DNA from: a virus
Reading direction: 5' to 3' (one strand)
UHGV virus genome: UHGV-1368192
Length of the DNA stretch: 64,000 bases
Below are positions 47,472 through 64,000 of this stretch, in pieces. The translations under genes were made by a program, and so were the position numbers. Within the stretch, counting starts at the first letter, position 1. Each line of letters begins with the position of its first letter. The notes beneath the pieces were generated by a model, which was given only the letters and a program-made list of their open reading frames with translations, searched no databases and was not told the origin of the DNA.

Positions 47472-50400
47472 TGTCTACATGCATTATTATTCTCTTCTGT
47501 TTGAGTCTTCTCAACCTCTGCTATCACGCCAAAGAGCGGAGAGTATGATACGGCTTCTGAATGAGCCTTGGCCTTGAGTGGTCCGGACTGCTCTATCAAC
47601 CCATTCTCAGCCAGGCGAACGAGATTCAGCTTCTCAGGCTGCGCTCTCTGGAGCGAAGGTAATAGATAGTCTCCGTCCATCCTATAGTCGTTGTACAGCG
47701 TTCCATCCTCGGTCACGATACCCCTTGGGTCGATCCTGGTGTAGACCGTGTCCCCTGCGTAGGCTCTACTGTCTATGCCCTGGACGTAGATGATGCCACG
47801 GTTGGGCTGATCCTTATCTGCGATGACATAGACAGGATCCCTCTTCTCACTTGTCACCATGATATAGTCAGGAGCGATACCGCCTGTGGTCTCCAGTAGT
47901 GCGACAGCGTCTTGCTGTGGCACAACACGGCCAATCTTCCTGATGTTCTCCCTGACGTAGTTCTGCATGAACTGATGAGTGAACTCAGTATCTAGCTCCT
48001 GTCCAGCCCTCAGCTCAAGGGCATCGAACTTGATCCTCTCAAGCATCGCGTTGCGCCCCATCATAAGAGCCTTCACTGACTGAGGTATAGCCTGTAGCAT
48101 AGCCTTCATGTTCGGATTACCACTCATGTAGGTTGCGTACAGAGCTAAGCCCTTGAGGAGCTCATAGTCCCTAAGAGCCTTTGCACGCTCTACACCGGTC
48201 AGTCGAGTGTTGTGCGCCTGCTCGATGATATCCTCAAAGGCAGCTGTAGCCTTCGCCATGGCCTTCTCCTCACTCGGAGTACCAAGACTCTTGAAGACCA
48301 ACGACTGGAACGTCCTCTTCTTCCATTGCTTGTCGATGAGGACAGGTACGATGTTCTCCTTGCCGAGACCTACTATCTTCTTCAGGGACTCTGGTGCAGT
48401 CCTATTGAAAATGTCTGGGAACTTGGTGATAATCTCCTGCGCCAGGACATTCTTCTTTTCCTCATCCTCAGAGTAGGTAGTGATAGCTGAGCTTACGTAC
48501 TGATCGTATGCAGAGAGGAACTTCTTAGTAAAGTCCATCGTAGGCTTTACACCGAGTCTCCTAGCCGTCTCTACGATAGAGAGGGCAAACATAGGTGATA
48601 CCTTAGGGTTGTAGACAGACTCTGCATACATCGTTCCGAAAAGACCAAGGCCCAGATACATCCTGTAGAAGTGCCCATCCTTGTTCTGCTCGATGAAGGT
48701 CTTAGTGGTAGCATTAGGACTGAGCCCTGGCAGAGTCCTCAGTGGTACGATGATACCCTCATGCCTGATATACCTGTGATTCTGCGCGCGCTCGATCTGG
48801 TCGATAGACTTGACCATAGCGAAGACAGACTCATTGACACCACCCTTAGGTCCGCTTGAGGAGACATCAGACTTGCTCTGGAAGACAAGGTCCTTGATCT
48901 CTGATGCAGCATTCACCACGTCTATGAGGAGGTCAGCAACACGCTTGACGGACTCCTTCGTTCTTAGATCCAACTTATTGAATGCCTCTACTACCTTGTC
49001 GTCAGTAGCATTGAGAGCCTCCTTGATGAGATCCTGGGTCTCGAACTTAGAACATTCTATAAGGTCCTCCATAGACACGTCTACAGATCTATTGCTTTTA
49101 ACCTCACCGCCCTGAGCTAGCGCCTTGAAGAGAGCCTGTGATCGTCCCTCATCACCCTCGAGGTTGGCAATGTGCTTCCACAGAGGTGTGGCAGTGATAA
49201 GACCAATGATGCTCCCTGGCACACCCATCCTCACCATAGTGGCGATGATAGACGCATTATCCATAGTGATGTCAGCAAGACCGATCACAGGGTCCTTAGC
49301 GTTATCCACAGATGCAGCGCTGTACTCCTCAAGGATACGAGAGACATACGTCTTGTCGTCGCCTATCATTCCATTGAGTGACTGATATGTTGCGCCAGCG
49401 ATCTTAATGGGTTTCTCCAGCTCGAGGAGCTGTGCCTGCTGGAAGACGCTCGTAGCGGTGTTCTCATTAGCGAATACACCTACGAGACCGAGACCAGCCT
49501 TGTTCTGTCTCTGCATCTCCATCTCCACCTCAGACAGGGCGATGTTCTTGCCTGACCTAAAGATATCTACGATCTCATTGATCTTGTCGAGGTCGAGGTT
49601 ATGCAGGTATTCAAAGATGACCTTGTCACCGATCTTCTTGTCAGCCTTGTCGTCAAGGACCTGCTCAAGGATCTCCTCAAGCCTCTCCTTGCTTATCTTA
49701 CTGATGATGTAGCCAATCTTCAGGTCCTTCTTCACACCATCATAACCGCCAGGCTGTGCCATCTCTAAGGCCGCCTGTGGGCTCCTCAGAACGCCTCTGA
49801 TGATGTCAAAGAGTACGTTGGTTCTCTGCCTTTGGTTGAGATCCCTGGTGTTGACACCGCCATTCTTGAAGACTTCTGCAGCTGAGTAGTTGATGTCAAG
49901 AACTGCGGGCCTCTTAGGCATCTTCTTGTCACCTCTGATCTGAGCCTGACGCACCTTCTCATCATAGTCCTTCTTGATTTCAGCGATCTTCTTTTTGCCA
50001 GGACCAACATCCTTCTTCATAAAGAAGAGCTTGTCGACGTCGAAGTCAAAGCCCGCCTGAGCAATACACTCATGAGGAACCTGGATAACACCACCGGCAA
50101 CACGAGGCAGGAAGCCCACGATACGGAGAGGGAAGGCTGAGTACTTAGACTCGGTAGGAATACGATAAGCTACAAGCTCAAGGAGATCCTCTCTACCATC
50201 CTTCTCAATCTTCTTGACATCGATCTCTCCCTTCTCATTAGCGTACTCAAGGATCTCGCTAGAGTGTGGCGTGACACGTACAGGTACGTAGTCGATGGAC
50301 CCATCCTCCTTGTACTGAACCTTCAGGTCGTTAGACGCTTCAGCTGAGCTCATCTGGATGAGTGATCCCCCAGGGACCATCATCTTATAGATCTTCTTCG

Positions 50401-53400
50401 CTGCCATCGCGTAGAAGGCAGAGTGCAGAGCATCCTGGAACGAAGGATCGTAGATGTCGTTCGTGAAGTGCTTACGTCCGTACTCGTCTACGTGAACCTC
50501 AAGGTAGTCCTCGCTAGATGGATCGTAATAGTCACTATCCATAAGTGCATCAAGTATCTTTCTCCTCAGACGATCGAAGCGCTTGTTGTAGCTCTTGACA
50601 CTCTTCTTGCTGATACCCTCGCTGTCAGGGTTCATCTCGATACCTGACTTGATGAACTCATCGATAGCGTGCTGACCTACGATCTCATTGATGGCTGCCT
50701 TGATCTGATAGCCAGACACCTCTACTCCGGCGATCTCAAAGGTATCCAGGTTATTGAGGTTGGTCGTGATGATCTTCCTCAGCTGTGTACCAAGCCTCTG
50801 CCACGTGTTGAAAGAGTGAAGGGGCGTTGAGGTCTGGATACCATAGTACTTATACGGCATGTCCTTGACCTTCTTTTCGTCAAGTTTGATACGACCATTC
50901 TCATCTCTATCCACTATGTGTCTCTTCCTACCATCGATCTCCACCTCTGTGCTAGACTCTACTAGCTGCGCGGTGATAAAGTCAGAGATATCATCAGTCA
51001 TGATCTTTGAGAACTCAGCCCTGTACTTCTCTACCTCTTCCTCAGACAGCTCCTTCTTCTTTACGTAGTCTGCCATATTCTCATCGAACTCCTCAAGACT
51101 AGCAGCTGTGATGGTCCTCTTCTTGCCGTTGTTGACCTCGAACGTGTACTTGATAGGAGCGATATTATCCAGGCTGAGGTCTACGGTAGCATAGTTACCT
51201 ACCTTAGATGCACTATTATACTCAATAGCGTCGATCTGGTTATCCTCCATGAACTTCACAAGCGCATTGAGGAAAGGAGAAGATACCCCTTCCTCATTAA
51301 GTCCAGTGAGGAGAGCCTCAGAGTGCTTGTACTGCTGAATGACCTTGGTATCCCTATCACCGTCCTTGACATGGATGTCGCCGTAGTACAGGCTCTTGAT
51401 GACATTAAAGCGGTGGTCCTTGATCTTGGCGTAGTCAGGCTCACGACCTTCCTTGATAGCATTAGCCATCTCCTCAAGAGCTTCGATAGCTCCATCAGTA
51501 TAACCCTGCCCTGAACCCTCAAGGATACGCTTGTAGCCTGAAGGTGACAGCCAAGCCTGTCCGTCGGTAGCTGTGATCTCGCTATAGGCCTTGAGTGAAG
51601 CGTCATAGCCAGCCTTGGTGATAAGCCCAAGCTCTTTCTTCTTATCGAGGATAGCCTTGATCTCCTTGGTTAGCCTATCAGCCATACGGTCATTGATGAC
51701 GACAGTACGCCTTACAGCGTTCTTCTCCATGTCAAGCCTCTGGGTATTACTCTGCGCCTGCTTAGCACGCTTGACCTCATTGACCATACTACCAAGTACA
51801 GCCTTATCACCATAGAGCAGATGTCCGATCTGGATCCTCCAGAACACACCATTGAAGGCAAGTGCATATTGCTCCATTGCTTCACCCTTATGGTCAAGGG
51901 CAAACTCATCCCATGACTGTACCTCATTCTGAACCTCCTGATTGAACTGTATCTCTACCTCATTCCTCAGGACCTCCTCTAGTTTAGTGAGGTCCGTGTT
52001 ACGAGCTCTGTTATACGCGTGGATGAATTTCACCCTGTCGAGATCCGAGAGGTTCTTGTCAATCATGGCACTCATGATGTTGTACTCGATACCCTCGACC
52101 TTCGCTGTGAAGTCATTGAGCCCAGGTAGCGATACGAACCTATGAGCCATGCTATCCCTCTTACCGATCTTCATAGCCTTCTCCTTGCCAAAGAGCACGT
52201 GCTGAGCTCTCCTGGCTTCATTGTAGGCAAGCATGGTGAGGTGGTTTATAGCGAACTCTCTGTCGACCTTCCTCTTGTTTTCATCCTCCTTCATAGGATC
52301 GAGTCTCCTCACCTTGACGAACTCAAGGGTGGATGCTTCTGCGGCTACAGGTAGGTGAGCCCAGTAGTAGGCGTTGTCCTTATCCCTCTGAGAGTCGTAG
52401 TAGAGGTTAGCAAGCTCATTGCTATTCCACTTGTTCATCTTGCGACCATTGTGCACAACGACTCTCTTCCTTGAGAATAACCCTGACACAAAGCTCTTCG
52501 CAACGTAAGCGTCATTGAGGAAGGCGTTAGCTGTATGATACTTGCCCTGTATTCCCTCTAACGCAACCTGATTCCTGTAGATCTCATCCTTGTCAAGATA
52601 CTCGCGCCGTATTGTATCTACGATCTTAGGATGCCTGTTGTTGCCCCTAAACTGTAGCTCCTGGAACGCCATATCACGATATGACGGTGCGAGGCTTGAT
52701 GCAAAGAGGAGACCCTCTACGCTTGTTCCAGTAGTGTCATAGCTCAATACTCCTGTGTAGAATACTGCGCTAATCTTTGATAGGCTACTATAGACGTATG
52801 AGAAGTCTGAACCCCTCGTGAAGTCTATTGGCGACTTCAGCGTGAACTTCTTGCCGTCACCCATCTGAGCGGCAAGCTTTCTCAGGTTCTTTGCGTAGTC
52901 AGCTATTGAGAATCTCAGCATGGTGAGGATGTCGTGACGTGATCCCGAAAGATTCCTATCCCCTGTTGGAGGCACAGTGCTTGCTGAATTGTTGTACCCT
53001 CTCGTTGTCTGTGCTGCCTTAGTCCATTCGATAGACAGCATCCTTGGCTCAACAAATATCCCAAACTTCTGCAGCAACTTAGACACGCGCTCCTGTAGCT
53101 GAATGAGTCTTTCGGCTTCAGTCAGCTTCATTTCAAGTCCACTGTCCATGCTGAAGTCCAGACCGACCAGGTCTATCATAGATTGGTCTATCTCTGTGGC
53201 GATCTTGTCTATCTCCTCAACCGACAGTGTTAGACCATCTACACCAAAGGCTTCTGTGAACTTGCTTGCCCACTTACTGATGACATCAAGATTTGATGAC
53301 CTATCCGCCATGAACACAAATCCCTGGCTATCTCTGACAGCGTACTTTATCCTGATCTTGTTTATCGCAGAGAACAGCTGTGATGCCATAGCCCTCATCC

Positions 53401-55339
53401 TCTTGCGCTTCTGGATGGACTCTTCGTTCCTGTAGTCAATGTAAGGGCGCAGCTGCTTTATCCATGGCTCTACGGTCTCCATAACTTCAAGACGCTCAAG
53501 CATGTCCTCGCTGTTCTCAATGCCCTCCATAAGAGAGGCAAGGGTATTGTAGGTCTCACCAAGTGACTTGAACTTAGTGTACCCGAACGAGTCGGTGATA
53601 GGCTTGCCGTCAAGATCCACATCCTCGATGACTGAGAATAGAGCCCTTACCGCTGGGGTGATAGTCGACATTACTGACTTCTCCTCAGCCTCAAGGAACC
53701 TGACATCCTCTCCAGCATCTCCTTCCTCAGAACTCCCTGTCTCCTCAGAGTCTTCTGCCTGGTCTCCTTCCTCATCGAAGAGGTCGTCAAAGAGATTACC
53801 CTCATATAGGTCGTCATCTCCGTCTTCTTCCTCATCAGCATCTTTGAGCTCCTCAGCCTCGCTGATCTTCTCAAGAGCTATGGTAGAGCCAAGTATCGAT
53901 CTTGCGACCTTGTTGGTGGCAAGGTGGAACATCCTCTCATCCTTATCGATATTCGTCTCGATATTCTTTAGGGTGTCCCTCTCACTCATCACGAAGCCAT
54001 AGGATGCCGCTACGGCCTCTATAATAGCATCACGCTGCTTTGATATCTCTGGGTCGTTCTGAAGCCGTACAGCCTTGATGATAGCCTCGTCAAGGGCTGT
54101 CCTGTCGAGGAGCCCATTAGGATCCTCACTAAATACCAAGTACGTCTTGAGTGCCTCAGCAAAGATTTCCTTGTCCTCAAGCCCTACGTTCCTCAGTGCC
54201 CTATCAATGATGACATCCTTAGCCATCTTATCAGCCTTGTCTATGCGATTGCTGATAGCGGCCTTGGTTAGAGCGTATAGAGTCTCCTTAGATTCCTTGC
54301 TCTTGAAGTCATGTAGGAACCCACCATCTTCCTTGAGGAGAGAAGAGACAACGCCCTTGACAACATCTGTAAGGACTCTCTGTTCCCTTCTGTTCTTCCT
54401 GCTCTCTATAGCTCGTGCGGAAGCGTCTGCGTTCTGTCGGTAGCCAAGGACCGATGCGTCATGAAGAACCCTGACACCCTTATCCACCATATTCTTAGCT
54501 TCTGTCGCTATAAGGCTATAGATCGTTGAGTCTACTACACCCATGGCGTTTCGCTCGGCTACAGATAGCATCCTGATCTCTCCGTTACCAGCCAAGCTAT
54601 GAAGCACATCGATGACCGACATCTTAGCCTTCATGGCTTCGTTGACCATATTAGTAGAGACATCGACAAACTCTTCCTTGATCCTTGCTACAGCGTCATC
54701 GCTAAGCCTCGTCTTGCCGTCTCCGTTCTTGATAAGCTCATTGAGCACAGCGCCGGTATCGACGCTCCCATCTGACTTACGGTAGTCCTTGAAGCCCGAC
54801 TGAATGATCTTGGCAACTCGCTCGATGTTCTTCTCAAGGTCACTCCTATCCAGGGCGTATCTCGCGCGCTTCTTGTAAACATTGTCAAGGATACGAACGA
54901 GGATAGCCGAGTTGAGATCGTTGATCTTACCTATAGCGTCCTGCGTCAGGAACTCATAGGCGTTGTTCTCCAATGCGTTCTGGATATAGAGTGGCACGTA
55001 AGACATGACAGCCTTGTACCCATCAGTCTCCTGGATGGGTCGACCATCAGGCTTCATCTTTCCGATCTTATCCAGTACTGCATCAACCTCCTCATTATTC
55101 TTGATAAGCTCCTGGAACTTGCGCTCAAGGATACGGATCGTGCTCTTCTTAGTAAGCTGATCGTTAGTAAACTCGTACCCTTGCGTCATCTCGGTATAAG
55201 CAATAAGCGCCTGGACCTTTTCTACTTTGTCGGCCAGGTGCTTGATTGGACTCATACCTTCTTGCCCTTCATACTCGGACTCGTTGATCAACTTCTTGAT
55301 CTCCTCGTATGTCTCGGGGCTCAGTATTCTACAATGCAT
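47468..55339 (-). CDS. Virion-packaged RNA polymerase-like giant protein of the crAss-like two-DPBB type.
   Basis: 2623 aa. AQAGFDFDVDKLFF carries a DxDxD metal-binding motif, DFDVD, encoded at 50033-50047. Confidence 0.55.
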   Translation of the reverse strand: MHCRILSPETYEEIKKLINESEYEGQEGMSPIKHLADKVEKVQALIAYTEMTQGYEFTNDQLTKKSTIRILERKFQELIKNNEEVDAVLDKIGKMKPDGRPIQETDGYKAVMSYVPLYIQNALENNAYEFLTQDAIGKINDLNSAILVRILDNVYKKRARYALDRSDLEKNIERVAKIIQSGFKDYRKSDGSVDTGAVLNELIKNGDGKTRLSDDAVARIKEEFVDVSTNMVNEAMKAKMSVIDVLHSLAGNGEIRMLSVAERNAMGVVDSTIYSLIATEAKNMVDKGVRVLHDASVLGYRQNADASARAIESRKNRREQRVLTDVVKGVVSSLLKEDGGFLHDFKSKESKETLYALTKAAISNRIDKADKMAKDVIIDRALRNVGLEDKEIFAEALKTYLVFSEDPNGLLDRTALDEAIIKAVRLQNDPEISKQRDAIIEAVAASYGFVMSERDTLKNIETNIDKDERMFHLATNKVARSILGSTIALEKISEAEELKDADEEEDGDDDLYEGNLFDDLFDEEGDQAEDSEETGSSEEGDAGEDVRFLEAEEKSVMSTITPAVRALFSVIEDVDLDGKPITDSFGYTKFKSLGETYNTLASLMEGIENSEDMLERLEVMETVEPWIKQLRPYIDYRNEESIQKRKRMRAMASQLFSAINKIRIKYAVRDSQGFVFMADRSSNLDVISKWASKFTEAFGVDGLTLSVEEIDKIATEIDQSMIDLVGLDFSMDSGLEMKLTEAERLIQLQERVSKLLQKFGIFVEPRMLSIEWTKAAQTTRGYNNSASTVPPTGDRNLSGSRHDILTMLRFSIADYAKNLRKLAAQMGDGKKFTLKSPIDFTRGSDFSYVYSSLSKISAVFYTGVLSYDTTGTSVEGLLFASSLAPSYRDMAFQELQFRGNNRHPKIVDTIRREYLDKDEIYRNQVALEGIQGKYHTANAFLNDAYVAKSFVSGLFSRKRVVVHNGRKMNKWNSNELANLYYDSQRDKDNAYYWAHLPVAAEASTLEFVKVRRLDPMKEDENKRKVDREFAINHLTMLAYNEARRAQHVLFGKEKAMKIGKRDSMAHRFVSLPGLNDFTAKVEGIEYNIMSAMIDKNLSDLDRVKFIHAYNRARNTDLTKLEEVLRNEVEIQFNQEVQNEVQSWDEFALDHKGEAMEQYALAFNGVFWRIQIGHLLYGDKAVLGSMVNEVKRAKQAQSNTQRLDMEKNAVRRTVVINDRMADRLTKEIKAILDKKKELGLITKAGYDASLKAYSEITATDGQAWLSPSGYKRILEGSGQGYTDGAIEALEEMANAIKEGREPDYAKIKDHRFNVIKSLYYGDIHVKDGDRDTKVIQQYKHSEALLTGLNEEGVSSPFLNALVKFMEDNQIDAIEYNSASKVGNYATVDLSLDNIAPIKYTFEVNNGKKRTITAASLEEFDENMADYVKKKELSEEEVEKYRAEFSKIMTDDISDFITAQLVESSTEVEIDGRKRHIVDRDENGRIKLDEKKVKDMPYKYYGIQTSTPLHSFNTWQRLGTQLRKIITTNLNNLDTFEIAGVEVSGYQIKAAINEIVGQHAIDEFIKSGIEMNPDSEGISKKSVKSYNKRFDRLRRKILDALMDSDYYDPSSEDYLEVHVDEYGRKHFTNDIYDPSFQDALHSAFYAMAAKKIYKMMVPGGSLIQMSSAEASNDLKVQYKEDGSIDYVPVRVTPHSSEILEYANEKGEIDVKKIEKDGREDLLELVAYRIPTESKYSAFPLRIVGFLPRVAGGVIQVPHECIAQAGFDFDVDKLFFMKKDVGPGKKKIAEIKKDYDEKVRQAQIRGDKKMPKRPAVLDINYSAAEVFKNGGVNTRDLNQRQRTNVLFDIIRGVLRSPQAALEMAQPGGYDGVKKDLKIGYIISKISKERLEEILEQVLDDKADKKIGDKVIFEYLHNLDLDKINEIVDIFRSGKNIALSEVEMEMQRQNKAGLGLVGVFANENTATSVFQQAQLLELEKPIKIAGATYQSLNGMIGDDKTYVSRILEEYSAASVDNAKDPVIGLADITMDNASIIATMVRMGVPGSIIGLITATPLWKHIANLEGDEGRSQALFKALAQGGEVKSNRSVDVSMEDLIECSKFETQDLIKEALNATDDKVVEAFNKLDLRTKESVKRVADLLIDVVNAASEIKDLVFQSKSDVSSSGPKGGVNESVFAMVKSIDQIERAQNHRYIRHEGIIVPLRTLPGLSPNATTKTFIEQNKDGHFYRMYLGLGLFGTMYAESVYNPKVSPMFALSIVETARRLGVKPTMDFTKKFLSAYDQYVSSAITTYSEDEEKKNVLAQEIITKFPDIFNRTAPESLKKIVGLGKENIVPVLIDKQWKKRTFQSLVFKSLGTPSEEKAMAKATAAFEDIIEQAHNTRLTGVERAKALRDYELLKGLALYATYMSGNPNMKAMLQAIPQSVKALMMGRNAMLERIKFDALELRAGQELDTEFTHQFMQNYVRENIRKIGRVVPQQDAVALLETTGGIAPDYIMVTSEKRDPVYVIADKDQPNRGIIYVQGIDSRAYAGDTVYTRIDPRGIVTEDGTLYNDYRMDGDYLLPSLQRAQPEKLNLVRLAENGLIEQSGPLKAKAHSEAVSYSPLFGVIAEVEKTQTEENNNACRQ

Positions 55340-55356
55340 AGTCTATATTATATGTG

Positions 55357-55393
55357 ATTCTATCCCAAAAAGAAGGGGTACGCACCCGAAAGT
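55357..55393 (-). terminator. Intrinsic terminator with a UUCG tetraloop.
   Basis: On the minus-strand RNA: ggggugcguacu-UUCG-gggugcguacccc followed by UUCUUUUU. Confidence 0.5.
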
Positions 55394-55406
55394 ACGCACC
55401 CCTAAG

Positions 55407-56222
55407 TTACTGCTTATCCAGGAGATCCCTTGCCTTGGTCATCACATCCTTGGCATCTGCGTGTGGCTTCCCGGTCTCTCCATCAACACGCTTTCGGAAG
55501 ATCTCGTCCCACTCTCGCCTGGTGTAAGTGTAGACAACCTTTGTTGCCGTGCCTAAGGGGAGGTGCTTCCTTGCGTAATCCGTTGGGACTCCCTTCCTGA
55601 GGAGAGAGAAGTAGTACTCCTCATCTATCTTGAACTTCCTCAGGCTATCCTCCCATCTCTCAGTATCCTCATCGGCAAACACTGTCTTGAGGATAGGCAG
55701 GTCAGGTCTCTTCTTAGTGCCGTAGGCTATGAACCTCGTACTGCTCTCTGCTATGGCGTTAGGGGATACCCTATTCAGCTCTCGCGAGATATCGATAGAT
55801 GTAACGCACTCTATGGTGTACCTGCGGATGGACTCCGGTACTTTCTCTGCAGGGATCCTCCATTCCTCACGTAGGTACTCCTTGTCGTTCTCCTCATAAG
55901 CCTGACCGTTGCTGGCCACATAGGCTATAACGCCAGGATCGCCAAAGACGTATCCAGGTTGCTCGCTCATATTGACATGCTCAAATACCACATGGGTAAA
56001 CTTGCTAAGGCGTGACGCTATATGGGCATGCTCTGGTGGTATCATGTAGTACCTCGTGGTATGCCTGAACATAGACCTATGCCCAGAGCGCCACAAATGC
56101 TCGCAGAGACGCTTATTATCCTTCGGTGAGGAATCGTAGCACACGCTCGCACATCGTGAGATATGGGCCTCTAAATCGCTCCCACACTCGTAAAGAGCGA
56201 CTGATGGTTCTAAAATGATCAT
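55407..56222 (-). CDS. thyX: Flavin-dependent thymidylate synthase (ThyX)-like.
   Basis: GVPTDYARKHLPLG corresponds to the ThyX GVPREVARxxLPL motif. GHRSMFRHTTRYY is a shortened version of the RHRxxS..S.RY signature. Confidence 0.5.
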   Translation of the reverse strand: MIILEPSVALYECGSDLEAHISRCASVCYDSSPKDNKRLCEHLWRSGHRSMFRHTTRYYMIPPEHAHIASRLSKFTHVVFEHVNMSEQPGYVFGDPGVIAYVASNGQAYEENDKEYLREEWRIPAEKVPESIRRYTIECVTSIDISRELNRVSPNAIAESSTRFIAYGTKKRPDLPILKTVFADEDTERWEDSLRKFKIDEEYYFSLLRKGVPTDYARKHLPLGTATKVVYTYTRREWDEIFRKRVDGETGKPHADAKDVMTKARDLLDKQ

Positions 56223-57004
56223 GATTCTACTATATGGGGTTTAACTGATGATGCCGGTTGAGGAAGAGATGAAGGCATAAGGTCGTAACGTTTCCTATCT
56301 AAACGGTAAGGGTGTATAGAAGCGCTAAGGGTCGGGGAACCTTTCAATGCTTGCTCTGTGGTGGCTACATACGTATAGCCGTTCTCGTTAGTATTGATAA
56401 CCTGCACGTCAATACTCTGCGGTACAAGCTCCTGAGGAATAAGGGCAACAACAATAGCATCCTTTGGCTCCTCCTCAAGCACAGGTACAATGCCTACTTC
56501 CTCCTCAAGAGAGATAGTATTAGCTTCCTCAATGGGATCCACCACGTCACGCATGTAAGCCTGATAAAGCCGTACTCGGTTAACTCTGGACATAAAAATA
56601 GGATTAACCCAGTAACGGCGTATCTGCCGGCGAGCAATTACAGACTTCTCGATCAGCTCACGCAAGCCACGATACACAGAGTTGAGAGCAATACCCTCTT
56701 CCTCAGAAATAACCTTTGCGTCGAGCACTACACAGTTTTCCTCATCAAGACCCTGTGAGAGCCTCGCAAAGATGATCAGCGCTGATGGGGATAGTCTAGA
56801 CATTACCTGGAATCCCTTAGGGTAGACACGCACGTGCTGTGATGTGTCTACCATCTCTTTCTGTCGGAGAGCTATATCCACATCAGTTATCTCCCCTTCG
56901 CCTGTGACGACGTGGAGATCCTTCTGTGTGGTGTACCTATACCTGTTCTGAAAGTCTGCCTCAAGGGCTAAGTCCATGGCGAATGGACATCTTGGAGTTG
57001 CCAT
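56219..57004 (-). CDS. Winged-helix DNA-binding protein; possibly a RepL-like initiator or an autoregulator.
   Basis: Contains LNSVYRGLRELIEKSVIARRQIRRY. Palindromic operators lie upstream. Confidence 0.4.
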   Translation of the reverse strand: MATPRCPFAMDLALEADFQNRYRYTTQKDLHVVTGEGEITDVDIALRQKEMVDTSQHVRVYPKGFQVMSRLSPSALIIFARLSQGLDEENCVVLDAKVISEEEGIALNSVYRGLRELIEKSVIARRQIRRYWVNPIFMSRVNRVRLYQAYMRDVVDPIEEANTISLEEEVGIVPVLEEEPKDAIVVALIPQELVPQSIDVQVINTNENGYTYVATTEQALKGSPTLSASIHPYRLDRKRYDLMPSSLPQPASSVKPHIVES

Positions 57005-57032
57005 ATCTATCTGTTGTTATCGTTCTGTACTG

Positions 57033-57040
57033 CAAAGGTA
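57033..57040 (-). promoter_or_regulatory. -7 box TACCTTTG, 28 nt upstream of the ATG at 57004.
   Basis: The reverse complement of caaaggta matches TAnnTTTG. Confidence 0.45.
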
Positions 57041-57058
57041 ATGAAACTATTTGGATTT

Positions 57059-57106
57059 TATACAATGCTGTATACTAAATTCAGATTCTTTATACAGCGC
57101 TGTATA
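57059..57106. promoter_or_regulatory. Two 16-bp palindromic operators of form TATACA-N4-TGTATA: 57059-57074 (tatacaatgctgtata) and 57091-57106 (tatacagcgctgtata, a perfect palindrome).
   Basis: Direct reading. The centres are 32 bp apart, about three helical turns, and the sites sit at the -33 position of the promoter. Confidence 0.55.
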
Positions 57107-57148
57107 ATAAAAAAAGGGGAAAGCACTGATAATCAGCACCTTCCCCCT
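57107..57148 (-). terminator. Intrinsic terminator: a 13-bp stem followed by U7 on the minus strand.
   Basis: On the minus-strand RNA: ggggaaggugcug/cagugcuuucccc followed by uuuuuuu. Confidence 0.5.
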
Positions 57149-57187
57149 TTCGTCTATATATATTTATAGTTAGTATAGTAGCGAGCG

Positions 57188-57775
57188 TTATAGCGGATCG
57201 ATTATGTCCAGGTATTCCTGCGTGTGGAATACGTAGTAGACATTCTTCCATCCCTGTACGCTCTTGCCTTTCATAACCCAGAGTAGACTCATGAAGGCTG
57301 CGTCCTGCAGTAGTCGCTCTGGACTCATCTTACCTGACAGCTTCATGGGTAGCTGGTAGTGGCTATCGATGAACTCAATCTCCTCTACCGCATATTCTTC
57401 CATAGATTCAAATCTACCAAAGTACTCGGTCTCAAAAGCGTCTGGCGAGGCTAGCGCTTCGTATTCGAATACTTCGTCCTGTCTCTGTAGCCACATCTCG
57501 TATGGCTCTCTTAGCGAAGCCTTCAGCTTTCTGTTTGCTTCAAAGAACTCGCAGTCGATACCTCCTTTATTAAGTAGTACCTCTGGAACTCCATATAAAG
57601 CTATGATTTGCTGATTGACCTCTCTTAGGTTTTTCCATACGTATCTATCGAAGTCGTCTTTGTCCGTCATGTTTGACAGATCTACCTTGATTGCATCCTT
57701 AGGTGAGACCATGCCGTCTATCACTGGTGCTACAGCTACCCATGCCCCATCAAAGATTCTCTTTTCTTGTTCCAT
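57188..57775 (-). CDS. Small acidic protein; anti-defence candidate.
   Basis: 195-aa ORF, D/E-rich. Confidence 0.5.
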   Translation of the reverse strand: MEQEKRIFDGAWVAVAPVIDGMVSPKDAIKVDLSNMTDKDDFDRYVWKNLREVNQQIIALYGVPEVLLNKGGIDCEFFEANRKLKASLREPYEMWLQRQDEVFEYEALASPDAFETEYFGRFESMEEYAVEEIEFIDSHYQLPMKLSGKMSPERLLQDAAFMSLLWVMKGKSVQGWKNVYYVFHTQEYLDIIDPL

Positions 57776-57787
57776 GTCTTTTGCTTA

Positions 57788-58372
57788 TTACCAGTTAGGT
57801 ATCTTGAAGAAGTAGTTGTACTCTCCTCCATGTACGAAGCAATTCATAAACTCTTCTGAAGAGAGCATCTCCTCCTTGGTCATCCCGGTTACATCCACGT
57901 CAAGCTCGTACCTGATGGGATCTGACTTTACTGAGTCTGCGAAGTCCTCTACGTCATCGTATGATCCCAGGTGGTTGTCCCAGAAAGAATCGATATCCAG
58001 TCTCACCTTCTCCTCGTTTCCCTTGAAGTGCTCGAGCTGAGCCTCTACCCAGAACTCGTATGCCTTGGTGTCACACTTATTCAGGTTCTGGTTGATCTCG
58101 AAGAACTCTGGCCGTAGCTCGAAGTTCTTCATGAAGAATGCTGGCATATCGCTAGTACCGATAATCTTTGGTGGCATCCTCTCGTATCCGTAGTTCAACT
58201 CCCTGCAGTAGGCGTTAAACATGTGGGCGCTTGAGAATGGGTATAGTAGTACCCAGTCACCGCACGTATGCTTTGTCTCAGTGTCGTTGAGGTCCATCTT
58301 CTGGAACTCTTCATATGGCACTACATACACCTTGGCGGTGGGGTAGGCCACAAATAATGGGCTCTTATTCAT
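57788..58372 (-). CDS. Small acidic protein; anti-defence candidate.
   Basis: 194-aa ORF, D/E-rich. Confidence 0.5.
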   Translation of the reverse strand: MNKSPLFVAYPTAKVYVVPYEEFQKMDLNDTETKHTCGDWVLLYPFSSAHMFNAYCRELNYGYERMPPKIIGTSDMPAFFMKNFELRPEFFEINQNLNKCDTKAYEFWVEAQLEHFKGNEEKVRLDIDSFWDNHLGSYDDVEDFADSVKSDPIRYELDVDVTGMTKEEMLSSEEFMNCFVHGGEYNYFFKIPNW

Positions 58373-58391
58373 AGTTGTCTTGTTGTTTAGC

Positions 58392-58778
58392 TTATTCCTC
58401 TGGCATCAGTACTTCTGCATCCCAGTATAGTTGATCGTTGTTGAGTAGCTCGTATAGGCTCTCACCTGTACTCTCAAGTACCCAGCATCCTCTAGAGAAT
58501 ACTACGACATCATCGATCTCTCTTGACATCGCTGTGCCGTCTCTATCCATCCACTGATAGCCACCTACGATTCTGCATCCTTCAAAGACTAGCTTACCGT
58601 TTAAGTCTATTCCTGTGTATTGATAGACATAGGCTACGCGCGCTACGTCTGTTTCCTCACTCATGTATGGACCTAGGATCAGCCAATCTATGCCGTTATC
58701 ATCATGGCAAGCTGATCCAGTGACCCACTCATTCCTGGCGTTGTACCCGCCAAATAGTATATCTCTTTCTTCTTTCAT
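58392..58778 (-). CDS. Hypothetical small protein.
   Basis: 128-aa ORF. Confidence 0.45.
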   Translation of the reverse strand: MKEERDILFGGYNARNEWVTGSACHDDNGIDWLILGPYMSEETDVARVAYVYQYTGIDLNGKLVFEGCRIVGGYQWMDRDGTAMSREIDDVVVFSRGCWVLESTGESLYELLNNDQLYWDAEVLMPEE

Positions 58779-58841
58779 CTTGGTTATAGTGGTTGAGGAA
58801 GAGAGAAAGATGTTTCCACCTACTCTCCCTTCCTCAGGTGA

Positions 58842-59489
58842 TTATTCTCCGGTAAGACTCTCAGCTACCTGATACAGCCTGTATCGCTTAGCAAAGTCCT
58901 TAACCATATTTAGGTCGTTGTCAGTGTAGATAACCTCCTTGACGGTATCTTCTGAGTCTAGACAGCTCTTTATCTCTAGGTAATACCTTCCGGTAGCACC
59001 TTGTGAAATGAGGAAGTACAGCTCACCATCCTTGCTCAGGCTGAGAATCTTTGCGTACATGCATGACTTCAAGCCTGACGTAGTCGGTAGCTCTACATCC
59101 TTCCAGTTCAGTGGTGGCATCATACTCTCTAGGACTTCCGACTGAGTGACTCTTCGATATATCAAGCTGTTAATGTTATTAGCTCGATCATTCTCCGCTA
59201 GCTCCATTAACTCACCAATATCACCTCTCGTTTCTGCGAATGGTTCAAGTTCATACTCTTCCCCATTGTCCTTCACGATTACGATATTGAGCTTTGATGG
59301 TGTACTCATGTCTCCTCTTACTATTTGATAGTATGAAGTCTCATTCTTGGAGAGCCGGATGTTGAGTGCCCTAATAAACCTGATCATCTCGATCTTCCCG
59401 GTTGCCTCAGGATTGATGGGGTTCGCTATCTTATCGACTATCTTCCAGTCTAGTGGTTGTTTTGTCTTGTATAATCCTATCTTGTTCAT
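58842..59489 (-). CDS. Hypothetical protein.
   Basis: 215-aa ORF. Confidence 0.5.
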   Translation of the reverse strand: MNKIGLYKTKQPLDWKIVDKIANPINPEATGKIEMIRFIRALNIRLSKNETSYYQIVRGDMSTPSKLNIVIVKDNGEEYELEPFAETRGDIGELMELAENDRANNINSLIYRRVTQSEVLESMMPPLNWKDVELPTTSGLKSCMYAKILSLSKDGELYFLISQGATGRYYLEIKSCLDSEDTVKEVIYTDNDLNMVKDFAKRYRLYQVAESLTGE

Positions 59490-59500
59490 ATCCTTGTTGT

Positions 59501-60052
59501 TTAGATGTACCCCTCTAAGTGAAACACGTAGATTACCTCTTCGCCTTTCTTCTCAGGGTGGGGGCCATTTATCATTACTACACTGCTCATATAGCACCTA
59601 TCCTCAAGCACGTCCTCTGGCTTTAACTTTTCAGACAGCATGATGGGGATGGTATTTAGATCATCCCAGGTCTTTATGATATGCCGTGCGTAGTCCTCCT
59701 TATTATCGAAGAAGCCGTAGTACATCTCCATTACATCCTGTGGATCTACATCTCCCTTCAGATCATCAATGTACAGCTCATAGGCAATTAGCTCCTCATC
59801 GTTTAGAGTCCCTACAGCCTTAAAGAAGTTATCCTTGATGATCTCCTTGCTCTCCCAGTCCACAAGGGCTGCAGGCATATCAAATCCGATAGAGTGCTTT
59901 TCCCAGCCATTAGACAGATATTCCTGTAGCTCATTGGCAAACTGGTCCTTTGTCATCTTGCCTACGGAGAACCTCTTGTCTTTGTAGACTAGCTCTCCAG
60001 CCTTCATCTTCTTTGCGATCAGGACGATGGCTTCGTCTTTTAATGTATTCAT
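59501..60052 (-). CDS. Small acidic protein; anti-defence candidate.
   Basis: 183-aa ORF. Confidence 0.5.
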   Translation of the reverse strand: MNTLKDEAIVLIAKKMKAGELVYKDKRFSVGKMTKDQFANELQEYLSNGWEKHSIGFDMPAALVDWESKEIIKDNFFKAVGTLNDEELIAYELYIDDLKGDVDPQDVMEMYYGFFDNKEDYARHIIKTWDDLNTIPIMLSEKLKPEDVLEDRCYMSSVVMINGPHPEKKGEEVIYVFHLEGYI

Positions 60053-60558
60053 TGTTGTTCTTTCTTGAATGATTCTTTTGTGATGATGGTGTGATGCTTG
60101 GCGATGTCGTAGTCTATCATTCCATCCGTTATCTCGTCTGTGGCAACGAAGATATCCACCTCGTCCTTTTCCTTGTCGTATGAGGCGTGGTACAAGATAG
60201 AGCTTTCATCTGGGTACTCCTCATTGATTATCGAGGTAAGCTCTCTGGCGGTACCAGCATTAAGACCATCAGCTTCCTCATAGAAGTTGACAAGATTTTC
60301 CTGTACCATCTTGATGAGTCGGATCTGGCCGTCTTCCCATCCCTGGATACCCTCTACAGGGCTCCAGCTTACGTCTCCTTGATCAGCCAAGGCCTTGAGT
60401 TCCTCGGCAGTCTTGTCGTACTTGATGCTGATGTATAGATCTGCTGATTCATAGTTGCCTTCTGAACAGACCGTTTCTAAGCCTGTGGTCATTGTTATGA
60501 CAAACTCAGCCCCATTGATCTTGACTGGGTTGCCCTGCATTCTTATGATTTCTCTCAT
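60049..60558 (-). CDS. Small acidic protein; anti-defence candidate.
   Basis: 169-aa ORF. Confidence 0.5.
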   Translation of the reverse strand: MREIIRMQGNPVKINGAEFVITMTTGLETVCSEGNYESADLYISIKYDKTAEELKALADQGDVSWSPVEGIQGWEDGQIRLIKMVQENLVNFYEEADGLNAGTARELTSIINEEYPDESSILYHASYDKEKDEVDIFVATDEITDGMIDYDIAKHHTIITKESFKKEQQ

Positions 60559-60564
60559 TGTTTC

Positions 60565-61188
60565 TTACTTAATATCGATTGGTACATCTAGCTGCTTGAG
60601 GAAGATCCTACCCTTGTAGGCCTCATAGCAAGCCTTCACTGCCTCTTCCTCAGCCATATCGAATGAGGAGAGGAATTGGAATTGAGGAAAGCGATGATCC
60701 ATCCAGCGCTTATTTCCGTGAATGAAGTCCTCAAGATTAGCATAGCCCTTACCTACCAGCTGCATCCTGAAGAGTGCAGGCTCGCAGACATACATAGGCC
60801 AGTCGTAAGGCTGTCCTGGCTTTCCCTTGCAGCCTCTGTTGGCCCATTCCTCCCAGACAAGGTAATCCTCCAGCTCTTCCTCAAGAAGGTCTCTGTGGAC
60901 CTTGTAGAAGGCCTGAGAGAGTCTTCCCTCGCAGATAAGCCCTTGAGGAAAGTTAGAGGTGTTGAGGAAGAGGATATCTGGATTCCTCTCCTTAGGGAAG
61001 AGGGCTTTGCAAGCCGCCATATACTCCTCTACAGAGCTATAGTTGCCTGGCGTGGTCCACTTCCCGATGCTTAACTTCTTAGTGTCGTCATTGCGCATAG
61101 CAATGAGCTGTGTCGTGACGTATAGTCGCGCGCGTCTTAGTCCTCCGTCCATATTAGTAGTCTGAAAATACGAAGCCTGGCTTGCCAA
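60565..61188 (-). CDS. Hypothetical protein.
   Basis: 207-aa ORF. Confidence 0.5.
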   Translation of the reverse strand: MASQASYFQTTNMDGGLRRARLYVTTQLIAMRNDDTKKLSIGKWTTPGNYSSVEEYMAACKALFPKERNPDILFLNTSNFPQGLICEGRLSQAFYKVHRDLLEEELEDYLVWEEWANRGCKGKPGQPYDWPMYVCEPALFRMQLVGKGYANLEDFIHGNKRWMDHRFPQFQFLSSFDMAEEEAVKACYEAYKGRIFLKQLDVPIDIK

Positions 61189-61747
61189 TCACTTCGTTGT
61201 CAACGTATGTGTAGTCACTGATGAAGAGGTCTCTCTTGAAGGCATCAAGGTCGAAGTAGAAGTATGGTGATATATTCTCTACCTTCTCGATCTCTTCTCC
61301 GTAGCACTCATTCATTAGCTCCTCTGCGAAGTCCTCTTCGCTGTAGTACTGACCTTTGTATCGGTCCTCAAACTTCGATGCGTCCACTGAGCTTACACTC
61401 CAAGGGTTGTTGTGGTAGTTGTGGATGTAAGCCTCAAAGGCCTCATGTAGATCCTCATCCAGCTCGTCAAACGCATCCTTGGTGGTGAAGAAGGACCAAT
61501 CGATCTCGTTACTGCCTTCCTGATAGATGCGGTCATCATCGATGCCCTCTACCTCAAGGATCTTAACCTCGAGTTCTCCTTCCTCATCGTCCCCATAGTA
61601 TTCCTCTAGGAGATCTTCTACATCTTCCCAGTAGTCTAGATCCTTGAGTTCGATCTCAAGACCTCTCTCATTGGGATCTTCAAGGTATCGCTTGCTTGTG
61701 GTCACTCGTACCTTGGATTCATAGATCTGTTCTCTGATAGTTGCCAT
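61154..61747 (-). CDS. ArdA/Ocr-like DNA-mimic antirestriction protein.
   Basis: Very acidic. DLDYWEDVEDLLEEYY resembles the Ocr segment DLWEDAEDLLNEY. YFDLDAFKRDLFISDY resembles the ArdA segment Y.DY.AYGRDL.LSG. Confidence 0.45.
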   Translation of the reverse strand: MATIREQIYESKVRVTTSKRYLEDPNERGLEIELKDLDYWEDVEDLLEEYYGDDEEGELEVKILEVEGIDDDRIYQEGSNEIDWSFFTTKDAFDELDEDLHEAFEAYIHNYHNNPWSVSSVDASKFEDRYKGQYYSEEDFAEELMNECYGEEIEKVENISPYFYFDLDAFKRDLFISDYTYVDNEVIGKPGFVFSDY

Positions 61748-61770
61748 AGCTGTTGCTTATTAGTTTGTTG

Positions 61771-62145
61771 TTAGAGCTCTACTATTTCGGAGCCGTCGTG
61801 TTCCTTAGCCTCAGGTTTTTCGTATGGTTCTCGCACGGAGCCCTTCTTCAGGTACTTGAAGGCCTCCTGATCCAGCTCGTTCTCAATATCCCTGATGAGC
61901 ATCTCGTAACTCATACGCTCCATACCCAGAGCCACCGATGCTGGCAGGTTACTCATGATCTCCTTACGGAAGCGGCGTGAGGAGAAGAGGCCACCGAACC
62001 ATACTGTCTCTTCCTCATAAAGGAATCCTGTGACCTTGATATTTGATACCTTGAGATCAAGGATAGTACGCTGCTCGTACTTGCGTGTGATGCTTGTGAT
62101 AGCTTTAGTCTCTCGAGTGAAGACAAAGTTCTTGATCGTTTTCAT
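61771..62145 (-). CDS. Hypothetical small protein.
   Basis: 124-aa ORF. Confidence 0.45.
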   Translation of the reverse strand: MKTIKNFVFTRETKAITSITRKYEQRTILDLKVSNIKVTGFLYEEETVWFGGLFSSRRFRKEIMSNLPASVALGMERMSYEMLIRDIENELDQEAFKYLKKGSVREPYEKPEAKEHDGSEIVEL

Positions 62146-62246
62146 TGCGCTTATATTTGTTTTGTTCTTAGTATTTCTATTCTTTCTTTGATTGTACTAC
62201 ATATAGGGGTAATAAGGGGGATCAGCTGCAACTGATCCCCCTTTTC

Positions 62247-63113
62247 CTATTCTCTTAGTGCGTCTTCTTTTGACATAGACCTTAAAGCAATACCGTTGCG
62301 TGCGGCAAATCGTATGGGCTCATCTGTACCCGGGAAGTACACGTTACACACATTGTCCCACTCCCTATCCTCCAGGATCCTCTTGACCGCAAGGTCATTC
62401 TCCTGTAGCCTCGGGATGAACTTAGGCCCGAAGGGTCCGTGTCCTATATACCACATGCCAGAAACACAGGACATCTTGATCTCCTCATCGGACATATCTG
62501 CCATCCTGTATATGACTGCGTGATCGTTGTAGGCGTTAGTAATCTCCTTAGTCAGTCCGGACATCAGGCCTCGCAAGTACGCAACCTTATGCTTAACTGA
62601 TACCTGACTGCTGGAAATCACGTCACCCCTATTAGATACCGCTATGGTATTAAGGACACGGAAACCTCTCTGACCTTCCTTGATGTATAGTAGTGCGCTC
62701 TTCTGTAGCTTGGTGAAGGCGTGCTCATCAAAGACAGTTAGTGTGTCCGTCATCATCCTTTCCTCACGCCTGTGTACCCCAACCAAAACACCATAGGCAA
62801 ACCACTCCCTCTCAGATTCTCTCTCGATCATCAGATAAGAAAGAGGAAGAGTAACAGAAAAAGAAGGAAGGAAAAGACCATCACGCCTTTCCTCAATCTC
62901 TTCTGGCATGACTGCCACTGGTGTCTGTATTGATCCCAACATAGGGATAGGTACATAGGAACAGGTCTTGAGCCTCGTGGGTTCTCCATACATGATACGT
63001 CCCCTACGGAGCCCCTCCTCAGTGAGGAAGGTGCAACCGTTAGCGTCCCTCAATGGTATAGGACCTTTCTCTGCCGTCATCACAACGGTGGATGCTTTAT
63101 ATCCTCTTCGCAT
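62247..63113 (-). CDS. Hypothetical protein; a possible partner of the downstream nuclease.
   Basis: 288-aa ORF that overlaps the nuclease gene. Confidence 0.5.
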   Translation of the reverse strand: MRRGYKASTVVMTAEKGPIPLRDANGCTFLTEEGLRRGRIMYGEPTRLKTCSYVPIPMLGSIQTPVAVMPEEIEERRDGLFLPSFSVTLPLSYLMIERESEREWFAYGVLVGVHRREERMMTDTLTVFDEHAFTKLQKSALLYIKEGQRGFRVLNTIAVSNRGDVISSSQVSVKHKVAYLRGLMSGLTKEITNAYNDHAVIYRMADMSDEEIKMSCVSGMWYIGHGPFGPKFIPRLQENDLAVKRILEDREWDNVCNVYFPGTDEPIRFAARNGIALRSMSKEDALRE

Positions 63114-63894
63114 ATATGTCCTCGATAGAGTTCACTTCTTCAGCGTTGATCTCTTTGTAGTGTCTAACGCCTGAGGAGAGATAGTATTCAAGCTCTGCAG
63201 CGACCTTACGCCACGATGGTACGCTGTGATCACCGATAGAGTAACCTGTGCTACCATCCTTCGTCTGGCTGAACTTAAATGCTAGAGGTCGTGGCGTTCC
63301 GTTGTTACGCACCACGATAAAGTGGAAGTCGTCAAGCTCATAGTCCTTGAACTGCTCATGCTGATTCATCCTAGCCCTGATGATATCATAGTACATCTGA
63401 GCTTGAATGCCGTAGTTCCATTCGATGACTGACTCTGGGAAGTCATCTTCTACCTTGCTGGTGGTCTTGAGGTCAATGATCCTCACAAGCTTCTTAGCGT
63501 GGTCCACAGTGATGATGTCAGCCATACAGCGCAATCCTACACGGCCCATCTTAGCTGTGAACTTCAGCTGGTAGAAGATCTCACCGTCGAAGGGTGGTAC
63601 CTCCAGGACCTTTGATACACCTGTGTTAGCTCGTAGGGCATTCACACACGCCATAGCCTTATCCAGCTGGTCCTGGGTGATGATGTTCTTACCTTGCGTC
63701 TTCCTCACAGCGTCAAAGTACTCAGCACAGCCGTGTACGTTCTTCAGTCGTGAGGACTTGTACCGATCATCGATGTAGTACTTACACTCAATGCATGCCT
63801 TGTGTATCTCTTCCTCAGGAACTTCTACCACCTTACTATAAGTGGTTGAGGAGAGAAGAAGGTCTACAACGTCCTTTAATTTCCCTGATGGCAC
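63097..63894 (-). CDS. PD-(D/E)XK family nuclease.
   Basis: MADIITVD...RIIDLKTTS gives a D...D-x-K motif. There is an N-terminal Cys cluster, CIECK...HGC. Confidence 0.5.
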   Translation of the reverse strand: MPSGKLKDVVDLLLSSTTYSKVVEVPEEEIHKACIECKYYIDDRYKSSRLKNVHGCAEYFDAVRKTQGKNIITQDQLDKAMACVNALRANTGVSKVLEVPPFDGEIFYQLKFTAKMGRVGLRCMADIITVDHAKKLVRIIDLKTTSKVEDDFPESVIEWNYGIQAQMYYDIIRARMNQHEQFKDYELDDFHFIVVRNNGTPRPLAFKFSQTKDGSTGYSIGDHSVPSWRKVAAELEYYLSSGVRHYKEINAEEVNSIEDIYAKRI

Positions 63895-64000
63895 ATTGTC
63901 TTCCTTTCCTACTACATAGCGCTCAGGGAACTCCTCTGGCGCTGTGAAGAGGCAATCGACTAACGAACCGAAGGTTAGTGATGCAGATGTGACCTTGTCG

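Follow-up and report, generated by a model that had tools for sequence, protein, structure and literature searches.

A variable gene island with five candidate ArdA-family paralogues in a crAss-like phage

On the minus strand of UHGV virus genome UHGV-1368192, of which a stretch of 64,000 nucleotides was analysed (the window), positions 57188-62145 hold an island of small and for the most part acidic proteins that had been put forward, from the DNA letters, as a cluster of DNA mimics acting against host defences. The original prediction counted eight consecutive minus-strand genes of 124-215 amino acids (aa); the series itself stands, and it comprises nine open reading frames (ORFs), labelled here g9 to g1 in the order of transcription, which look like an operon because the gaps between them run only from -4 (a 4-nucleotide overlap) to 63 nucleotides. 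Judged by sequence, five of the nine (g8, g7, g2, g1 and g5) belong to the ArdA family of anti-restriction proteins, and the reading that we favour, and consider probable, is that the eight cassettes past g9 are a recombination-shuffled array whose core is a lineage-specific expansion of this family in a crAss-like phage. The genes and the signals that bound them are, from upstream to downstream:

62214-62243, minus strand: upstream boundary hairpin, a 12-bp G+C-rich stem with a 6-nucleotide loop and no T-run, between the 288-aa gene and g9
61771-62145, minus strand: g9, 124 aa, isoelectric point (pI) 6.63, net charge 0; first gene of the operon, a neutral backbone gene
61154-61747, minus strand: g8, 197 aa, pI 4.05, net charge -40; near-canonical ArdA by sequence
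60565-61152, minus strand: g7, 195 aa, pI 5.98, net charge -2; non-acidic member of the ArdA family by sequence
60049-60558, minus strand: g6, 169 aa, pI 4.32, net charge -20; acidic orphan
59501-60052, minus strand: g5, 183 aa, pI 4.64, net charge -15; acidic ArdA derivative by sequence
58842-59489, minus strand: g4, 215 aa, pI 5.10, net charge -5; mildly acidic two-domain protein
58392-58778, minus strand: g3, 128 aa, pI 4.13, net charge -16; YopX fold
57788-58372, minus strand: g2, 194 aa, pI 4.57, net charge -17; acidic ArdA derivative by sequence
57188-57775, minus strand: g1, 195 aa, pI 4.55, net charge -15; acidic ArdA derivative by sequence, the last cassette
57111-57151, minus strand: intrinsic terminator, a 19-pair stem (7 G-C) with a 3-nucleotide loop and a T-run, which closes the operon

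The start of g7 is taken as the ATG at 61152 in place of the TTG at 61188 to which the ORF list extends, because the product of every relative is 195 aa long from the corresponding ATG. Against the background of a simple gene set for the whole window (9 island genes and 35 others), a pI below 4.7 is found for six of the nine island genes and for two of the 35 elsewhere (Fisher p = 3e-4; Mann-Whitney p = 8e-4), a clustering of acidic genes that exceeds chance. The proteins had been described beforehand as mostly strongly acidic, which is borne out for these six; g7 and g9 are not acidic at all, and g4 is only mildly so. The strong terminator that had been proposed is indeed present, read from 57151 to 57111 on the minus strand, and its 19-pair stem and T-run can be followed through a comparative set of 16 genomes, namely the window and 15 related IMG/VR loci, in each of which the region compared is bounded by the conserved 288-aa gene on one side and the RepL-like gene on the other. 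In all 16 the terminator is kept at a fixed position, whichever cassette happens to be the last, and together with about 25 conserved nucleotides just upstream of it forms the downstream boundary of the island. The upstream hairpin is likewise kept in all 16 genomes, and in one of them (L012) both of its arms change together.

Membership of the ArdA family can be traced through several kinds of comparison. An all-against-all phmmer search links the five genes in a chain (g1-g5, E = 1e-11 to 1e-13; g1-g2, 2e-9; g2-g7, 2e-6; g2-g8, 2e-4), and against the Pfam ArdA model (PF07275) g8 scores 28.8 bits, above the gathering threshold of 27 bits, with g2 at a sub-threshold 14.7 bits and no Pfam ArdA match for g1, g5 or g7. 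When a profile of the five paralogues was searched against 1.84 billion representative proteins, 134 matches were returned at E <= 1e-3, and Pfam ArdA was matched by 77 of the 79 sequences scanned (78 of the more distant matches and g8), the best at E = 3e-34. A reference hidden Markov model (HMM) was made from 97 outside ArdA representatives, with the window proteins left out of it; it scores g8 at 90.6, g7 at 66.2, g2 at 56.9, g1 at 39.4 and g5 at 31.0 bits, and it picks up no other ORF of the window. In profile-to-profile comparison by hhalign, g8 aligns with the ArdA profile over 160 columns (probability 99.9, E = 1.4e-37), g7 over 128 columns (98.7, E = 1.4e-16) and g2 over 127 columns (98.4, E = 7e-15), followed by g1 (97.2, E = 3.5e-11) and g5 (95.8, E = 7.6e-9), while g3, g4, g6 and g9 all fall below a probability of 0.5. 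A profile led by g8 also matches PDB entry 2W82, the Orf18 protein of Tn916, over residues 2-161 of 165 (E = 7e-11); the five-paralogue profile by itself matched no PDB sequence, and only this wider g8-led alignment reached 2W82.

When the subfamilies are compared, the profiles of g8, g7 and g2 each come closer to that of canonical ArdA than to each other's, and divergence increases along a chain from g2 through g1 to g5 (g2-g1, 3e-12; g1-g5, 4e-21), g5 being the closest paralogue of g1. Only 12 of the 1.84 billion representative proteins match the five-paralogue profile at E <= 1e-10, those examined being alleles or fragments of the window's own genes, and in that collection no lineage other than that of this phage shows the g1, g2, g5 and g7 subfamilies. 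Among canonical ArdA proteins, the nearest clade occurs mainly in Bacteroidota genomes (a cluster look-up of its closest members yielded no taxonomy), and all of the named hosts of crAss-like relatives belong to the same phylum, which fits a Bacteroidota host for the phage and a putative origin of the genes in that phylum's pool of mobile elements.

It had been expected that at least one member of the island would resemble Ocr or ArdA and that the others would have no recognisable family. The ArdA half of this expectation is upheld and extends, on the comparisons above, to five genes instead of one; the Ocr half falls away, with no Pfam match to Ocr at E < 1. Most of the supposedly family-less proteins turn out to be diverged ArdA copies, g3 has a YopX fold, and only g6 is left as an acidic orphan. 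Nothing in the analysis points to BREX, Gabija or CRISPR, which had been named as targets, and the combination of ordinary pI values with matches to housekeeping families, to which the original prediction had been opposed, did not emerge from the pI and charge calculation or from the family searches.

The prototype of the family is Orf18 of Tn916 (PDB 2W82), and complexes of ArdA with EcoR124I are available as 7BTO and 7BTR. ArdA consists of three domains, with a small dimer interface in domain 3 that carries the anti-restriction motif and the essential residues Y137 and I138; a second motif, termed VF and formed by I160 and F161 in Orf18, is also essential (McMahon et al. 2009, PMC2731889). 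Acidic ribbons on the protein mimic about 42 bp of DNA; in the model of the same paper the target sequence would be covered by domain 3, and domain 1 would stand in for the DNA contacted by HsdR (PMC2731889). By these landmarks g8 is, as far as sequence can tell, a full member of the family. It is colinear with Orf18 across all three domains (limits used: residues 3-61, 62-103 and 104-165); at Y137, I138 and D139 it has Y, F and D, D146 is kept, and I160 and F161 correspond to V and F. Its charges of -18, -11 and -11 on domains 1, 2 and 3 compare with -13, -10 and -9 in Orf18, and its net charge of -40 with -32.

Since g8 keeps every testable sequence hallmark, namely colinearity, the Y-(I/F)-D and VF motifs and a strong negative charge on each of the three domains, it is quite likely that it works in the manner of canonical ArdA, as a dimeric DNA mimic that would fill the DNA groove of Type I restriction-modification (R-M) enzymes. 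We infer DNA mimicry, a Type I target and early expression from this likeness: most likely, an elongated g8 dimer would imitate about 42 bp of B-form DNA and block the DNA-binding groove of the host's Type I enzymes soon after the genome has entered the cell. The likeness to Ocr (T7 gp0.3, PF08684), which as an acidic dimer blocks Type I R-M enzymes by mimicking DNA, is one of function alone; Ocr differs from the island proteins in fold and family, and none of the nine matches PF08684 at E <= 1.

The other four copies, g7, g2, g1 and g5, share with ArdA the N-terminal and central domains, the motif Y-x-G-x-Y/F...E-D/E-F/Y-A and the residue that corresponds to F161, the last two features being kept in all five paralogues. 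The VF motif can be recognised throughout the set (V-F in g8, I-F in g7, F-F in g2, V-F in g1 and V-F in g5). The positions of the dimer interface, 137-139, are occupied by D, V, D in g2, by K, M, S in g1 and by K, L, K in g5, and in g7 this segment is deleted. Charges on domains 1, 2 and 3 are -2, -5 and -10 in g2, -4, -5 and -6 in g1 and -1, -8 and -6 in g5, so that domain 1 is nearly uncharged in these three, and in g7 they are +3, -4 and -1. These four proteins thus appear to be derived from ArdA and to have lost its dimer-interface motif, and g7 has lost its charge as well. Unlike classical ArdA, which is a single gene of a conjugative element, the island has five tandem copies in a crAss-like phage, four of them without the interface tyrosine, three with a nearly uncharged domain 1 and one, g7, without net charge.

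What the diverged copies do can be envisioned with less assurance. The three acidic ones, g2, g1 and g5, would probably serve as specialised decoys directed at other Type I families or at other DNA-binding defence complexes; that they are such decoys, with an altered oligomerisation and an altered domain 1, is a proposition that we would put at even or somewhat under. The case of g7 is different in that it keeps the ArdA sequence pattern without the charge, and for this reason it is probably not a DNA mimic and would have a role of another kind.

Comparison of the 16 genomes reveals an island whose content varies between nearly constant borders. The flanking genes are 95-100% identical across the set, and the island itself measures between 3.9 and 6.9 kb. 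Three genes, g9, g8 and g7, are present in 16 of 16 genomes, g7 at 90-98% identity; for g8, two genomes carry an allele that is 40-42% identical to the copy in the window. The gene g5 is found in 15 of 16; its alleles are 80, about 115, 183 or 197 aa long and 39-52% identical to the copy in the window, apart from a 96% copy in one genome, and the short ones are without the N-terminal domain. Both g2 and g4 occur in 14 of 16, g6 in 12 (once as a 72-aa fragment), g3 in 10 and g1 in 4, and a 55%-identical allele of g1 lies in the same syntenic island of one relative (L099). The number of ArdA-family ORFs per genome ranges from 2 to 5.

The ratio of nonsynonymous to synonymous substitution rates (dN/dS) is 0.10-0.33 for all nine genes when compared with their orthologues, alongside 0.06-0.14 for the flanks, with synonymous divergence (dS) generally higher inside the island. 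On this evidence the cassettes are best described as functional genes under purifying selection that are exchanged by recombination, not as decaying remnants. Nine relatives have an additional ORF of 91-94 aa between g3 and g2 (L004 14009-14284, L008 14482-14766 and seven others) that is absent from the window, and one protein, P0065, is a chimera whose N-terminal half matches g6 and whose C-terminal half matches this extra ORF, which shows directly that cassettes recombine. In one relative the position of g1, at the island's downstream end, is taken by an unrelated 132-aa ORF (L015 11576-11974), another alternative cassette.

In these respects the island resembles the accessory and anti-defence hotspots of phages and the leading-region islands of conjugative plasmids, with which it shares small, packed genes, conserved boundaries, a content that varies among near-identical genomes and a known anti-restriction family. 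It differs from both in that a single family has been expanded by paralogy and in that its early expression and anti-defence activity are predicted ones.

Such an expansion seems to be rare. When ArdA-family ORFs were counted within 8 kb on each side of a canonical ArdA gene, all 80 of the IMG/VR loci surveyed held exactly one, as did 79 of 80 loci from bacterial genomes (mostly Bacteroidota). The remaining genome locus has two adjacent ORFs 12 nucleotides apart, and since together they span 528 nucleotides, about the length of one ArdA gene, they are read as a single split gene; no second intact ArdA copy was therefore found in the 160 other ArdA loci examined. A tblastn search of the INPHARED collection (50,697 phage records) identified 129 cultured-phage records with an ArdA gene, with one match in each, although very diverged extra copies could escape such a search. 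These single-copy homologues come, for example, from Mycobacterium and Rhodococcus phages, the Desulfovibrio phage ProddE and the Pseudomonas phage vB_PsyP_3MF5; like g8 they are phage-borne ArdA genes, and they are annotated as anti-restriction. The records that g8 itself matches reach at most 42% identity to it over 35-43% of its length. The same search with g7 gave no match in the phage records, and full-text literature searches returned no paper that links crAss-like phages to ArdA or describes arrays of this sort. The island can be viewed as a known kind of phage counter-defence in an unusual form with several copies, the like of which was not met elsewhere among the loci examined.

The four genes outside the ArdA family are a mixed group. 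In its AlphaFold2 model, g3 has the YopX fold (structures 2i2l, 2ox7, 2qyz and 2p84); it differs from that family in having no Pfam YopX match at E <= 1 and in its acidity (pI 4.13), and the g3-family profile finds no PDB sequence. A model was also made for g6, and both are confident. By sequence and by structure g6 is the only acidic protein of the island without a characterised relative, and it is a variable cassette with two allele classes, at about 58% and about 92% identity. For g4, the family alignment separates a variable N-terminal half, which may be a specificity module, from a conserved C-terminal half with a weak match to DUF5517 (PF17639) in 7 of 10 family members (best E = 4.8e-5; the window protein reaches 21 bits, below the 27-bit cut-off). 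It is conceivable that g3, g6 and g4 have an accessory part and likewise counteract the defences of the host, and for each of them we would regard this as possible and somewhat short of an even chance. Finally, g9 is nearly invariant across the relatives and belongs to the conserved backbone, not to the variable set; searches of Pfam, PHROGs, NCBIfam, PADLOC and the PDB sequences gave it no match.

The N-terminal half of g4 (residues 16-101) also gave sub-cut-off matches to Cas11a/Csa5 (Pfam 17.9, TIGR01878 18.5 and PADLOC 18.5 bits). If true, a phage protein that mimics Cas11, which is the small subunit of type I-A Cascade, would be notable. The match is seen in 2 of 10 family members and the half-profile finds no Csa5 structure, so that this reading was dropped as probably a chance resemblance and is kept as a weak lead.

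Several observations weigh against the view that the island is an expanded ArdA array directed at restriction. If ArdA acts broadly, one copy might suffice, and five copies would then be unexplained; ArdA proteins from different mobile elements have been reported to bind the Type I methyltransferase EcoKI of E. coli (Chen et al. 2014). The tyrosine of the dimer interface, essential according to McMahon et al., is absent from g1, g2, g5 and g7, and g7 is uncharged, which puts it outside the charge pattern of the family. In their default, local form the HMM-HMM alignments of g1, g2, g5 and g7 all end after the EDFA motif, which for g7 and g2 is where the 127-128 columns stop; with relaxed settings a combined g1/g5 profile does align end to end with ArdA (173 columns, probability 98.0), albeit at low confidence over the last 50 or so residues. 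PHROGs, NCBIfam and PADLOC offer no meaningful match for any of the nine proteins. There is also a circularity to be considered: the window proteins were part of the profile that served to assemble the ArdA reference set, and its scores may be somewhat inflated, although the members of that set independently match Pfam ArdA.

A bolder form of the ArdA expansion would have the scaffold radiate into exchangeable decoys, with g8, g2, g1 and g5 each tuned to a different Type I family or defence complex, the uncharged and always present g7 a new use of the fold other than mimicry, g6 a new family of inhibitors lacking any characterised structural relative, and the swapping of cassettes between the conserved hairpins a way of re-arming strains against the highly variable restriction systems of Bacteroidota. 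Taken with all of its parts, we find this version rather doubtful.

Among the alternatives to an anti-defence function, the one that fares best supposes that the island serves host takeover, with the ArdA-derived acidic proteins, g3 and g6 mimicking DNA or another nucleic acid in order to engage DNA-binding proteins of the host outside its immune systems, such as nucleoid proteins, RNA polymerase, nucleases of the RecBCD/AddAB type or uracil-DNA glycosylase. Acidity and small size would suit any target of a DNA mimic, and g1, g2 and g5 no longer carry a marked charge on domain 1, the proposed mimic of the HsdR contact, and are also without the canonical dimer motif; in addition, the island sits amid genes of replication, recombination and nucleotide metabolism (PD-(D/E)XK nuclease, ThyX and RepL-like). 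It must be set against this that ArdA, known to target Type I R-M enzymes, is the one family that could be identified confidently, and that a fast turnover of cassettes between near-identical flanks is more typical of arms-race genes than of genes whose products are directed at conserved machinery of the host, which together make host takeover an unlikely account of the island.

It could also be argued that only g8 is an anti-restriction gene, that g7, g2, g1 and g5 have put the ArdA fold to unrelated regulatory or replication-linked uses, that g3, g4, g6 and g9 are ordinary phage genes, and that the acidity has no meaning. The behaviour of g7, which is uncharged and yet the most conserved member, present in all genomes, is what this account would predict, as is the loss of the interface tyrosine from four of the five paralogues, and YopX proteins are widespread in phages without a known function. 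What it leaves unaccounted for is that g1, g2 and g5 retain net charges of -15 to -17 under purifying selection, and that they are dispensable, exchangeable cassettes, which would be unexpected for core regulatory or replication functions; we therefore judge it quite unlikely.

There are defence systems that are triggered by Ocr, such as PARIS, which detects it, and the extra paralogues could by analogy be decoys or anti-sensors aimed at abortive-infection systems that sense DNA mimics, without being restriction inhibitors themselves. This would account for the presence of several diverged copies beside one canonical copy; nothing in the sequences of the island points to it, and it seems very unlikely. 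That the ORFs are chance frames or decaying pseudogenes, whose acidity is a by-product of base composition, draws on nothing but the negative AT skew (A is depleted on the plus strand, and the coding minus strand is A-rich) and is refuted by dN/dS values of 0.10-0.33, orthologues in 16 genomes, two confident AlphaFold2 models and significant HMM matches, so that its probability is close to nil.

The array constitutes a natural series of variants, in which one copy is canonical, others lack the dimer motif, others have an N-terminal domain without charge and one is uncharged throughout, and such a series could reveal which features of ArdA set its range of targets. The island supplies between five and seven candidate proteins against Bacteroides defence systems, one of them an orphan acidic protein. 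Few viruses of the human gut are as abundant as the crAss-like phages, about whose counter-defence little is known, and Bacteroidota carry many variable Type I restriction systems; Bacteroidota genomes also carry many ArdA genes on mobile elements of their own.

The phage itself belongs to the crAss-like group (order Crassvirales), as shown by the ORF at 20137-21699, whose match to the major capsid family of Crassvirus has E = 4e-142. Its major capsid protein has at most 44% identity to any capsid in the 50,697 phage records, the nearest being those of the uncultured phages cr106_1 and cr112_1 and of the Bacteroides phages DAC15 and DAC17, and a megablast search with positions 55400-63900 found no nucleotide match in the same records; for both of these reasons the lineage is regarded as one that no cultured or curated phage represents. 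Its close relatives come from IMG/VR and Logan as contigs of 54-93 kb, of which those of at least 72 kb are near-complete genomes. A search of genome contigs with the capsid protein, directed at finding a host, gave no match.

With respect to expression signals, a sigma-70 promoter scan found fewer sites than in shuffled sequences, the consensus in question covering neither Bacteroidota promoters nor those of phage RNA polymerases, and no Shine-Dalgarno-like sequence lies upstream of any island gene, the upstream regions being A-rich. The start codons of g2 and g4 are each closely preceded by the same 11-mer, TAAACAACAAG (58379-58389 and 59493-59503, minus strand). As a shared signal TAAACAACAAG is not significant, given that 12 of 100 shuffles yield at least two matches.

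The upstream neighbours of the island are the conserved 288-aa gene and a PD-(D/E)XK (DUF3799) gene (63097-64000, minus strand) that is cut by the end of the window; the 265-aa ORF with a GTG start that is listed for it is read as a truncation because relatives encode 345 aa. Downstream, the order is a weakly RepL-like winged-helix gene, ThyX and then two giant ORFs of 2623 and 1583 aa. The first of these genes (56219-57004, minus strand), which had been taken for a helix-turn-helix gene, resembles winged-helix families only weakly (RepL, with 18.7 bits where the cut-off is 20.3, as well as TrmB and the replication-initiation family PHROG 428), and from these matches it may be a replication initiator rather than a regulator of transcription; in the prototypic crAssphage, RepL genes have been reported at the ends of the gene block on the replication strand (PMC10983915). 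Between the island terminator and this gene are two 16-bp palindromes, TATACAGC(A/G)(T/C)TGTATA, at 57059-57074 and 57091-57106, which are 32 bp apart, are the sole two matches in the window (0.4 expected) and occupy the same positions in all relatives; they resemble operators or iterons to which the RepL-like protein, the product of the next gene downstream, would bind.

The ThyX (Thy1) thymidylate synthase gene (55407-56222, minus strand; E = 6e-15) overlaps the stop codon of the RepL-like gene and has a terminator of its own at 55374-55403 (minus strand) with a 13-bp stem. The window contains three giant ORFs in all, at 34832-42640 (plus strand, 2602 aa), 42720-47471 (minus strand, 1583 aa) and 47468-55339 (minus strand, 2623 aa). 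The 1583-aa protein has no Pfam match, and the 2623-aa protein contains a highly acidic stretch of low complexity (EEDGDDDLYEGNLFDDLFDEEGDQAEDSEE...).

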